This document shows positions 37,801-40,800 of a DNA stretch of 64,000 nucleotides, in pieces. Position 1 is the first letter of the stretch. Each line of letters begins with the position of its first letter. Made by a program: the position numbers. The stretch lies in the NCBI RefSeq assembly GCF_044324785.1, contig NZ_CP172127.1; one strand, written 5' to 3'. Origin of the DNA: Escherichia coli. Lineage in GTDB: Bacteria; Pseudomonadota; Gammaproteobacteria; Enterobacterales; Enterobacteriaceae.

Positions 37801-40800
37801 TGCTGGACTCTGTTGCGAACGATAAAGCGGCCCTGATTGCGAAATCTCGCGATACCTTTATTCGTCTGCTGAACGCCACCCCGAACGGTGTGATCCGCAA
37901 CTCCGACGTGGCAAAAGGTGTGGTCGAAACCTCCCTGAACGTCGGTGTGGTGACCATGACTGACAATAACGTAGAAATTCACTGCCTGATCCGTTCTTTG
38001 ATCGACAGCGGTAAAGACTACGTGGTGAGCATGCTGGATTCGCTGGGTAATCTGGCTGGCGCGAAAACCGAAGCGAAAGGCGCATATCCTGGCTGGCAGC
38101 CGGACGCTAATTCTCCGGTGATGCATCTGGTACGTGAAACTTATCAGCGCCTGTTCAACAAGACGCCGAACATCCAGATTATCCACGCGGGCCTGGAATG
38201 TGGTCTGTTCAAAAAACCGTATCCGGAAATGGACATGGTTTCTATCGGGCCAACAATCACCGGTCCACACTCTCCGGATGAGCAAGTTCACATCGAAAGC
38301 GTTGGCCATTACTGGACACTGCTGACTGAACTGCTGAAAGAAATTCCGGCGAAGTAATTATTTGATTTGCTGCCGGATGGCGTTTAATCGTCTTCCGGCA
38401 GTTTCATCCTTCATTATCCTTCGATAAAAGCCATCCCGGTAAATATCCGTCGCGGGTTGCCACGTTCAATTTGATGATGGAACATTCGCCGCTGCGATTT
38501 CAGCGCCGCGCTATTTTCCTGTTGCTGTTGCTCCAGCTTCCAGGCAATCAGCAATCGCGCCAGCCGTTTGTTGGCATGTTGGCTGCGCTCTGACTGAACC
38601 TTCACGCTAATCCCGGATGCCAGATGCGTGGCGCGCACCGCCGAGTCGGTTTTATTGACATGTTGACCGCCCGGCCCCGACGAACGCAGCGTCTCATAAC
38701 GGATTGCATCCGATTGTTCCTGCTCATCAGCAGTAAAACGCCCAATGCCCAGAAACCAGTTTTTGCGCCCATGATGAGGCCGATACGGACTCGGACAAAT
38801 CCACTGGATAGTGCCGCACCAACTTTCGCTTAATGCCCATGCGTTATCGCCATCCAGAGAAATCAGCGCTGAACGCAACGTGTCAGAGTAGCGGCCCGTT
38901 TCTGTTTCCAGCACCGTTATCGCGACGTCTTGTCGGGTAGCTTCTTTAATCAACCTGTCCAGCGCCTTTTTCACTGCGAGGCAACATTCTTCCGGCCCCT
39001 GAGCTGAGGAGAGTTGTAGCAAGATCATCCTTTTTTCCCTCCACTGTTTTTGAGCGTTAGCACCGGACGCAGCCGCGCGACAGGAATAATTAAACCGGCC
39101 TGCACCAGACATTGCACCACGCTTTCAGCCGATTTATAGGCTTGTGGCGCTTCTTCAAAGATGAGTTGTTTATCGCGACAAATTACCCGACTGCCAAGTT
39201 CAGTACGCGAGAGTTGCGTCGCCGTGTATTTCGCTGCCAGACGCCCTTTACACTCGGTGCGCCCCCATTTACGCCCTGCCCCATGCGCCAGCGAGTGGAG
39301 TGTTTTTTCGTTCGCAACAGGTTTAACCAGCCAGGAGTAATCGCCGCGTGAACCGGGAATAATCACCAGACCGTTGTCATCCGGCGTGGCACCTTTACGA
39401 TGCAACCAGCCCTGTTGATCGCCGATTTGACAGGCGCTAACAAAGTTATGCGCCACATCCAGAACAGGACTTCCGGTGGCCTTAACTTGTTGCATTATGC
39501 GCAAAGCGATCATCTGGCGATTAATACGCGCAAACGCCAGCGCATCGTCATGTTCCGCAATATACCGTAGCGCGTCGTCACTGCCTTGAGGCAAACCATG
39601 ATGCGAAAACGAGGCAATATGCCGCTGTAAAATAGACTGCCCCACCCCCCTCGAGCCGCTATGAACCAGCAGTTGCAGATGTTGTGCATCCAGACCTGCC
39701 AGTGCAAACAGTTCAGCGTCGATGATTTGATCTACTTGTTGCAGTTCTGCGAAGTGGTTTCCGCCACCGATAGAGCCAAGCGAGCTGCGCCACGGATGCT
39801 GTGCAAATGCTGATGGCAGGTTTTCCTCCAGCCAGCTTTCTTCAGCAACGTCATCCAAAGCTGATAATCGCTTTTCAAACTTATCGGCGTTGTATTTGCG
39901 AGCGAGAATATCTGTTTGCCATAGCGCCATGCCGCAGCCGATATCATTGCCGACCAGTGCCGGGTAAAAGCGGCCTGCGGAGAAGAACGCTGCGCCAATC
40001 GGGTAGCCGCGTCCGGGATGTAAATCTGGCATCCCTACTACGCGCTGCATGTTGGGTAAATTTGCCGTGGTGTGTAATTGTTGGATCGCTAAACTCTCGA
40101 TCCACAGGTCATCAGATGCGATGGTAAATACCGCATCGGATAAGGGACGAATATATTTGCCCATGTATCATTCCATTTATACTCGTCATACTTCAAGTTG
40201 CATGTACTGCGACTGCGTTCGTTCACCCCAGTCACTTACTTTAGTAAGCTCCTGGGGATTCACTCGCTTGTCGCCTTCCTGCAACTCGAATTATTTAGAG
40301 TATATAAATATAAAAATCAGGAAATGGCAGACGAATCCAGGGCAAGAAAAAAAGAATTAATCCTGGAAAGGTCTGCAAAGAGTCATTGATAAAGGATTTG
40401 TCATGATTTACCTCCTTGCAGTTTGTGGAATAAGAAAACGCACACATACTAGGCGGGCGTTATTTTCATTGCAAGCTGGATTTAATGTTGCGGTTTATAT
40501 CGCATATAAAAATTAGTAAACCACGCTCCCCGGCATTCAACGCACTGCTGCTTAACTGTCTGAAAACCATAACGTTCAAAAAAGGGCTTTGCGGTTATGC
40601 TGGCGTCCACCGTAAGTTCGGATTCAGACTTAATCAAAGGTTTTAACAAAGCGCTGGCAACCCCACGTCGGGTGTATTCCGGTTCAACAAATAACATATC
40701 GATATAATGTCCAACGCGGGTAATAAAACCAACCGGTTGTGCATTAATGACTGCAACCCGCACTTGTGATTTCGCGAGTTTATCTTTCCAGCGAGATTCG

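Follow-up and report, generated by a model that had tools for sequence, protein, structure and literature searches.

A candidate PA5471.1-type leader precedes the rtcB2-prfH ribosome-repair operon of Escherichia coli and carries an inserted ERIC element

Two described systems are close to the locus considered here. In Escherichia coli ATCC 25922 the RtcB2-PrfH pair constitutes a ribosome rescue and repair module (Tian et al. 2022, PMC9304027; Maviza et al. 2022, PMC9223846), in which PrfH frees the peptide from ribosomes whose 16S rRNA has been cut at A1493/G1494 and RtcB2 re-ligates the rRNA (PMC9304027; PMC9223846); both studies expressed the genes from foreign promoters and the native leader is undescribed there. 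In Pseudomonas aeruginosa, PA5471 (ArmZ), a member of the PRK09588 RtcB family, is co-transcribed with the release-factor-like PA5470, and a 13-aa leader peptide, PA5471.1, mediates the induction of armZ by ribosome-targeting drugs: full translation of PA5471.1 leaves armZ off, and ribosome stalling is reported to remodel the leader RNA and to turn armZ-PA5470 on (PMC3516279; PMC12057347; PMC13041342). The gene is also on with an amber mutation at codon 3 of the leader peptide, with a deletion of the leader and with a clinical 7-nt deletion (PMC12057347; PMC13041342), and a 2025 review called leader-peptide control apparently unique to MexXY (PMC12057347). Here we describe a 64,000-nt stretch of an E. 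coli genome (assembly GCF_044324785.1, contig NZ_CP172127.1; hereafter the window, meaning this whole stretch). We read its segment 38414..40475, minus strand, with a probability of roughly 0.8, as the rtcB2-prfH repair operon together with its native control region, into which an enterobacterial repetitive intergenic consensus (ERIC) element has been inserted.

The gene pair and the ERIC element are already known as such, and the segment 38414..40164 (minus strand) is an intact copy of the E. coli RtcB2-PrfH operon. A preliminary description of this DNA, made from the sequence alone, had noted a full-length RtcB-like gene of 379 aa translationally coupled to prfH, in the arrangement reported for the PrfH/RtcB2 ribosome-repair system (PMC9304027; PMC9223846), and each of these statements held. 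The rtcB2 gene lies immediately 5' of prfH, the TGA of the former and the ATG of the latter overlapping as ATGA at 39028..39025; starting prfH at this ATG gives a protein of 204 aa, the mechanical list of open reading frames (ORFs) having given 232 aa. Against the NCBIfam equivalog models, RtcB2 scored 642.7 bits with NF007153 (cut-off 407) and 621.3 bits with TIGR03073, the release-factor-H-coupled RtcB family (cut-off 271.8), and PrfH scored 330.4 bits with TIGR03072 (cut-off 166.65). PrfH is a class-I release-factor homologue devoid of domain 1 that keeps the GGQ motif, and it differs at 3 of 204 residues from chain 8 of PDB 7sa4, annotated as peptide chain release factor H. The catalytic His294 of RtcB2 is present within AHGAGR, and the GCG, GNHF, HSGSRG and AHN motifs are intact when aligned to the solved RtcB structures of T. 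thermophilus and P. horikoshii; in the published work H294N inactivates RtcB2 and Q122E inactivates PrfH (PMC9304027). Gene order, ATGA coupling, protein families and catalytic residues match those of the ATCC 25922 module, from which nothing substantial differs at the protein level, and because of this near-identity to the assayed proteins the window pair would be expected to protect 16S rRNA at A1493/G1494 against colicin E3 or CdiA-CT.

At least 80% of the 2.2-kb locus is found in 2,709 of 5,426 complete E. coli genomes, about half. In K-12, whose RtcB-like gene had been put down as a mere fragment, the comparison showed precisely that, a 207-nt RtcB fragment next to a prfH truncated at its N-terminus; the K-12 deletion has been put at about 1,000 nt in a study that likewise reported the overlapping order of rtcB and prfH (Baranov 2006, PMC1586002). 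The K-12 gene, ykfJ, is inducible by 4-azaleucine according to Morita 2006 as cited in PMC3516279.

What appears to be new is that rtcB2-prfH carries a conserved leader of the PA5471.1 type, apparently from E. coli to Pseudomonas. In the window this leader occupies 40305..40475 (minus strand), 5' of the ERIC element, and comprises a candidate promoter, a strong Shine-Dalgarno (SD) sequence, an upstream ORF (uORF) of 15 codons and a hairpin (Table 1); the uORF start reads AAGGAGG, 6 nt, then ATG at 40404. The comparison covered 17 rtcB2 loci picked by protein homology and representing 15 species or lineages, namely four Escherichia lineages, Klebsiella oxytoca, K. spallanzanii, Citrobacter, Phytobacter/UBA3516, Salmonella, Intestinirhabdus, Kosakonia, Cronobacter, Entomohabitans, Limnobaculum, Proteus, Providencia and Pseudomonas sp. 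A scan of the genome collection with the RtcB2 protein gave 8 loci, and exact-protein look-ups and one DNA-pattern scan of metagenomes added to them; the exact-protein look-up for Chromobacterium yielded no locus. Common to the spacers of the compared loci, outside the ERIC, were a -10-like TAnnAT (in most of them), (C)UGCAA(A)GGAGG with an AUG 6-7 nt further on, an ORF of 13-16 codons, a hairpin formed on its 5' side by the end of that ORF, then a U-rich spacer and finally a conserved rtcB2 start region, which across genera reads GGA(A/T)TGG-N3-ATGGGCAA, or in RNA GGA(A/U)UGG-N3-AUGGGCAA. The fuller promoter motif TTGCAA-17-TAnTAT was seen in Escherichia, Klebsiella, Citrobacter FP75 and Phytobacter/UBA3516, with a -10-like TAnnAT in most other leaders; a simple promoter scan did not call the leader promoter of the window, which has 8 of 12 matches against a threshold of 9 of 12.

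The association of this leader with rtcB2 extended well beyond the set from which it was defined. In each of the 33 other rtcB2 loci looked at, a uORF with its own strong SD lay 5' of rtcB2 on the same strand. A covariance model built from the 15 species (R1) had exactly one match in each of 38 sources (38/38), always 5' of rtcB2, and no further match elsewhere in the 64-kb window; across full-length ERIC alleles the 3' end of the R1 match was threaded into the ERIC, and four rows were therefore excluded from the alignment used for pair counting (A4). The metagenome scan, whose pattern fixed only the SD, the uORF AUG, TTTGCRG and ATGGRCAA, retrieved 15 loci, and in 15 of 15 an RtcB2-type N-terminus followed. 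In Limnobaculum, Proteus, Providencia and Pseudomonas the leader and rtcB2 have unrelated genes around them, and yafP is missing from Citrobacter FP75; kept among unrelated neighbours across genera, the leader thus travels with rtcB2. The stop of the uORF falls at a fixed alignment column and is nonetheless TAA, TAG or TGA depending on the species, and the distance from its AUG to UUUGC is 21, 18 or 15 nt, which together suggest that the uORF is translated. The spacing from the SD arm to UUUGC is 31 nt in 13 of the 15 species. Scanning 38000..41000 against Rfam at E ≤ 10 returned no match to the leader on its own strand.

Three further observations concern this region. After the -10 box, at 40430..40445 (minus strand) and at the counterpart positions in the other compared loci (L009-L021), most species show a GC-rich stretch (GTGCGCG or ACGCGCAC) with a T-run next to it; we take the GC-rich stretch to resemble the discriminator of stringently controlled promoters. 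On the opposite strand, 40398..40470 gave a weak Rfam match to STnc350, a Salmonella small RNA (21.8 bits, gathering score 60, E = 0.7); the match overlaps both promoter and uORF start. The K-12 yafP-ykfJ spacer, equivalent to 40165..40481 of the window, figured among the top 100 riboswitch-like windows of a 2015 structural-entropy screen and was left uninterpreted there (PMC4448311).

The resemblance to the P. aeruginosa system concerns both the genes and the leader. The window RtcB2 shares 59% identity with full-length ArmZ, and PrfH shares 62% with PA5470; the same NCBIfam equivalogs apply. Upstream of armZ (locus L038) we found GCAAAGGAGG-N7-ATG...TAA, encoding the peptide MIQFSTLCRLRLA followed by a stop, whose Q3 and F4 agree with the published description (PMC13041342); the leader also carries CTTTGCAGG, a distal GGTCTGCC and ATGGATTGGATTATGGGCAA. 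Motif order and peptide agree among the leaders of P. aeruginosa, Pseudomonas sp. YH-1 (peptide MQALITLCRSRLA, then a stop) and the window. The P. aeruginosa and enterobacterial leaders have in common a strong SD (GCAAAGGAGG), a uORF of 13-15 codons with the ending ...(T/S)LCR..., the two motifs CTTTGCAGG and G(T/C)CTGCC, and the start region GGATTGG-N3-ATGGGCAA. Given the shared motifs and peptide and the identity of the downstream genes, the window uORF is, as judged from sequence, the probable enterobacterial orthologue of PA5471.1, the orthology with P. aeruginosa itself resting on motif order, peptide and gene context; other Pseudomonas leaders are intermediate, with R1 scores of 65-87 bits. 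The regulatory logic may be shared as well, full translation of the uORF giving the off state and a ribosome held early on it the on state. The two leaders differ in that TTTGCAG lies about 80-90 nt from the rtcB2 AUG in the enterobacterial version and about 230 nt from it in P. aeruginosa, in that the region of the proposed P. aeruginosa terminators is missing from the former, whose segment 3 can instead pair with the rtcB2 SD and AUG, and in that E. coli lacks the MexZ/MexXY output, so that the regulated product would be the repair system itself. The four RtcB2-PrfH papers make no mention of a leader, a uORF or a native promoter.

The RNA of the leader could adopt two folds. RNAalifold, applied to a MAFFT alignment of the 15 species, predicted helix A, the inner part of the leader hairpin (hairpin B) and a helix between GUCUGCCAUUUCC and the rtcB2 SD and AUG (the masking helix). 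The 5' arm of helix A, CTGCAAGGAG, overlaps the uORF SD AAGGAGG, and its 3' arm, CTCTTTGCAG, corresponds to uORF codons 8-11. Since GUCUGC is used by both hairpin B and the masking helix, and GCAG by both helix A and hairpin B, the folds would be mutually exclusive. Pairing was counted on A4, which holds 28 distinct leaders. The whole hairpin B fold was 88.1% paired, as against 31-51% when the partners were slid, and its outer helix was 95.8% paired, 3 of 6 pairs changing on both sides (71:318, AU 14, GC 11, GU 2; 69:320, AU 26, GC 1; 72:317, CG 19, UG 4, UA 1); hairpin B is thus well supported by compensatory changes. The alternative fold was 87.2% paired as a whole, the masking helix 83-93% (82% in its short, SD-masking form) and helix A 88.6%, the last being nearly invariant and devoid of covariation support. 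Helix A and the masking helix together form the minimum-energy fold of the empty-site and K-12 leaders of E. coli, and they appear to be conserved and thermodynamically favoured, though not proven by covariation. A further pairing, of the 5' segment UUAUUCCA with the rtcB2 SD, occurs in the minimum-energy fold of the window and was dropped, as it is not conserved in other genera.

Table 1. Positions of the features of the rtcB2-prfH locus in the window.
Feature	Position	Strand	Details
prfH, peptide chain release factor H, 204 aa	38414..39028	-	GGQ at residues 120-122; NCBIfam TIGR03072
rtcB2, release-factor-H-coupled RtcB-family RNA ligase, 379 aa	39025..40164	-	NF007153, TIGR03073
rtcB2 initiation region (segment S4)	40159..40174	-	GGAATGA-TAC-ATG-GGC; alignments A1, A2, A4
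ERIC/IRU repeat, 127-nt imperfect palindrome with flanking TA	40178..40304	-	in AT-rich spacer DNA, 3' of the leader hairpin and 5' of the rtcB2 SD
Segments S3 and S3'	40320..40341	-	CCTGGATTCGTCTGC-CATTTCC; 3' arm of hairpin B; in the other fold, GUCUGCCAUUUCC is paired to the rtcB2 SD and AUG
Hairpin B	40327..40376	-	GCAGACCTTTCCAGG, 20-nt loop, CCTGGATTCGTCTGC; 5' arm is uORF codons 10-14; inverted repeat I3
Leader uORF, 15 codons and stop	40357..40404	-	peptide MTNPLSMTLCRPFQD; position and length (13-16 codons) conserved
Helix A	40373..40421	-	CTGCAAGGAG (40421..40412) with CTCTTTGCAG (40382..40373); inverted repeat I7, RNAalifold consensus
Candidate sigma-70 promoter	40446..40474	-	TTGCAA (40474..40469), 17-nt spacer, TAGTAT (40451..40446); read from the sequence

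Segment 3 being able to pair with the rtcB2 SD and AUG, and the terminator region being missing, a translational rather than a transcriptional attenuation is suggested for the compact enterobacterial leader, and we propose the following version of it tentatively, at somewhat less than even odds. With no ribosome on the uORF start, helix A would form and free GUCUGCCAUUUCC, which would pair with the rtcB2 SD and AUG and keep the gene off. A ribosome bound at the uORF start and unable to elongate would occupy the SD arm of helix A, and its footprint should stop short of the arm that begins 23 nt 3' of the uORF AUG; GCAGAC could then pair with GUCUGC as hairpin B, and the rtcB2 start would be unmasked. 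Where the uORF is translated throughout, hairpin B would be melted and masking restored. Ribosomes cleaved by colicin E3 are reported to pile up at the start codon (PMC13166195), and ribosomes stalled by drugs would act like them at the uORF start. The stall is probably neither nascent-peptide-specific nor drug-specific, because the N-terminal part of the uORF peptide is not conserved. Translational attenuation by stalling on a leader peptide is familiar from ermC, cat and cmlA, where a short uORF is likewise followed by alternative hairpins and a stalled ribosome frees the downstream SD and AUG; they have no sequence relationship to the rtcB2 leader. The clinical deletion that renders armZ constitutive (nt 16-22, ACCCTTT) removes what would be an arm of helix A in this model, and would fit helix A as an element of the off state, although it also shifts the reading frame.

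It is conceivable, if doubtful, that the leader senses the very substrate of its operon, i.e., that ribosomes with a cut decoding centre initiate on the uORF, park at its start codon and unmask rtcB2. Release by PrfH and repair by RtcB2 would then clear the parked ribosome and reset the switch, closing a loop of damage sensing and repair across the Gammaproteobacteria, and in P. aeruginosa this ancient circuit would later have been co-opted for the role of ArmZ as MexZ anti-repressor.

Several points weigh against the leader as read here. The mechanism proposed in the P. aeruginosa literature is transcriptional attenuation and not a translational one (PMC12057347; PMC13041342). The pairs specific to the off fold (outer helix A and the extension over AUGGGC) are 89-93% paired, with one-sided changes and without covariation support, as both the outer helix A and the AUG-masking extension are almost invariant; the short SD-masking helix offers one swap (325:422, AU 7, UA 7), at a position where 14 of 28 leaders are unpaired. 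The shuffle and slide controls are easily passed by related sequences, and the structure of hairpin B was what A4 had been fitted to. In A2 and A4 the row for Proteus is out of register by 3 columns and was counted as broken; by eye its hairpin B arms form a perfect pair, GCGGACA/UGUCCGC. Model R1 scored only 9.7-11 bits on the P. aeruginosa leader, where about 180 nt, the site of the proposed terminators, are inserted between the hairpin arms and account for the low score. As to novelty, a literature search tied no leader peptide to rtcB outside Pseudomonas, but it did not cover Morita 2009, which may already note an enterobacterial homologue.

The nested inverted repeats that the preliminary description had placed upstream of the operon at 40190..40290, as a possible leader structure, are real but slightly wider, spanning 40178..40304, with arms at 40178-40202/40280-40304 and 40226-40240/40243-40257. 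As RNA the palindrome folds at -57.9 kcal/mol, compared with -29.1 ± 3.3 for shuffled sequences (z = -8.9; 0 of 200 shuffles as stable). A 143-nt query centred on it found matches in 5,425 of 5,426 E. coli genomes, at 60,266 places in all (median 12 per genome), and the ERIC-PCR primer sites, with primer sequences as printed in PMC6742460, are recognizable within it (ERIC2 21/22, ERIC1R 20/22). Within the Rfam scan mentioned above no ERIC family was matched, Rfam having none, and the best match on the element was the sub-threshold Vibrio V_AS5 (46.7 bits against a gathering score of 96). A yafP-rtcB spacer of 317 bp is common to the window, strain 2013C-4282 and K-12; EC6622, whose element has lost 72 bp internally, has one of 245 bp, and FDAARGOS_1256, without the element, one of 189 bp. 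Escherichia whittamii has the exact empty site, ...TATTTA-TA-AATGG as against ...TATTTA-TA[element]TA-AATGG in the window, which indicates a TA target duplication as known for ERIC, alias intergenic repeat unit (IRU), elements.

Of 5,426 E. coli genomes, 1,650 have the full-length element at the rtcB2 site; matches covering 75% of the query correspond to a short ERIC allele and those covering 51% to an empty allele, and the RtcB gene was intact in every empty-site row sampled. Many E. coli whose operon is intact have either no element here or an internally deleted one, and so do other Escherichia species and other genera; it is absent at this site in E. whittamii, K. oxytoca, Citrobacter, Salmonella and all the more distant genera examined. 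The palindrome, the TA termini, the TA duplication and the internally deleted variants are all reviewed properties of ERIC/IRU/RU-1 (Sharples & Lloyd 1990; Hulton et al. 1991; review, PMC2229807), to which the present element, of 127 bp, multi-copy, in a transcribed intergenic position and with the primer core, corresponds without difference, except that its landing site is special, inside the loop that a putative regulatory helix of the rtcB2 leader encloses. The palindrome is an ordinary ERIC/IRU copy forming a self-contained hairpin; dispersed copies, primer match, TA duplication and the filled, short and empty alleles mark it as a strain-variable repeat insertion and not as a component of the operon. 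A structured leader had therefore rightly been suspected, but it lies at 40305..40475, and the same division emerged from the covariance check, the ERIC segment showing no covariation and being absent in other genera while the hairpin of the true leader covaries. A mimicry of the 16S decoding site by the palindrome was also considered and rejected: its core GACTGGGGTGAA (40223..40234, minus strand), which we take to be identical to 16S nt 1482-1493, ending at the colicin E3 cut, belongs to the ERIC consensus and recurs about 12 times per genome at unrelated loci. The identity was judged a coincidence, since the motif is found in all copies genome-wide.

Other readings of the region have to be set against that of a native leader with an ERIC element inserted. 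That the palindrome itself is the dedicated regulatory leader of the operon is quite improbable. It is very stably folded, lies in the probable 5' untranslated region 13 nt 5' of the rtcB2 ATG, and has a counterpart in the independent ERIC-type insert in the same spacer of K. spallanzanii; ERICs in Yersinia transcripts, moreover, are reported to alter mRNA stability in an orientation-dependent way (PMC2229807). It is nevertheless a repeat dispersed at a median of 12 copies per genome, missing or deleted at this site in many E. coli with an intact operon and missing in other genera, and the conserved elements of the leader all fall outside it. Assigning the uORF and the hairpin to the upstream dinB-yafNOP operon, for instance as its terminator, or taking the uORF as a free-standing small protein, would agree with the position of the leader directly 3' of yafP in Escherichia and Klebsiella and with the peptide C-terminus LCRPFQ[D/E], conserved among Enterobacteriaceae. 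Elsewhere, however, the leader still precedes rtcB2 although the gene upstream is dinB or encodes a regulator of the DeoR or AsnC family, an amidohydrolase or a peptidase of family C92; the residues past Leu-Cys are not conserved in Proteus, Providencia and Pseudomonas, where the RNA pairing is kept, and the Leu-Cys codons, CUU UGC, are themselves the arm of helix A. We consider this reading very improbable indeed, and hairpin B with its U-tract was rejected as a yafP/dinB terminator, as the leader accompanies rtcB2 through unrelated gene contexts.

A more serious contender, though in our judgement an unlikely one, is that the leader is a transcription attenuator as in the P. aeruginosa model, with complete translation of the uORF letting a terminator form and a stalled ribosome blocking it, and with the pairing of the SD and AUG being incidental. 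Such a mechanism has been proposed for the orthologous PA5471.1 leader (PMC12057347; PMC13041342), although the 2025 review considered that the attenuation model still needs confirmation (PMC12057347). A U-rich tract follows hairpin B in all species, and in Cronobacter and Limnobaculum a U-rich stretch (AAUUUUAUU) follows the 3' arm of the masking helix. The tract starts, however, 8-11 nt past the stem of hairpin B and does not abut it, a simple and admittedly crude terminator scan found no terminator-like site in the window leader, and the approximately 180 nt with the proposed P. aeruginosa terminators are missing from the compact leaders.

Returning to the native leader with its inserted repeat, the ERIC separates the two arms of the masking helix. 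For the K-12 allele the minimum-energy fold keeps this helix, the ERIC forming a side hairpin, so that the insertion looks structurally tolerated; its presence in the loop of the masking helix is probably tolerated and not required, and it may modulate expression, by analogy with the effects of Yersinia ERICs on mRNA stability (PMC2229807). The window differs from K-12 and other strains by a G to A change at 40168 (minus strand), its initiation region reading GGAATGA, as in 2013C-4282, instead of GGAATGG. With this allele (GGAAUGA) the masking fold is about 9 kcal/mol worse than the optimum, and one may speculate that the change might raise basal rtcB2 expression.

Other leaders carry insertions of their own. 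K. spallanzanii has a separate 60-nt insert with ERIC termini in the same AT-rich spacer (L011, 2426..2485), and Intestinirhabdus alba a 179-nt insert in the loop of hairpin B (L014, 1270..1448). Leader loops seem to be tolerated landing sites for insertions.

The genes on either side of the operon vary among strains. Upstream, the yafO toxin gene is missing from the window through a 374-bp deletion relative to K-12 (40934..41000, minus strand), the yafN antitoxin gene being intact (40966..41259) and followed by about 8 yafO codons and then by yafP, which truly begins at Met21 of the ORF listed at 40934; both yafN and yafO are lacking in other strains (L001 and L004). Downstream, prfH and pepD are separated in some E. 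coli by two extra genes, one for a metal-dependent hydrolase and one for a hypothetical protein (2013C-4282, L001 5462..6276), which are not found in the window.

The leader connects two bodies of work that, as far as it is concerned, do not refer to each other, that on RtcB2-PrfH repair and that on MexXY and ArmZ in Pseudomonas. It predicts that in enterobacteria the ribosome-repair operon would be induced by stalled or damaged ribosomes, and its compact form, of 165 nt, could serve as a model for dissecting the switch. The naturally occurring ERIC-filled, ERIC-short and empty alleles provide a ready-made experiment on a repeat inside a regulatory loop. The finding also suggests that the antibiotic induction of armZ may be an inherited trait of a ribosome-damage response.

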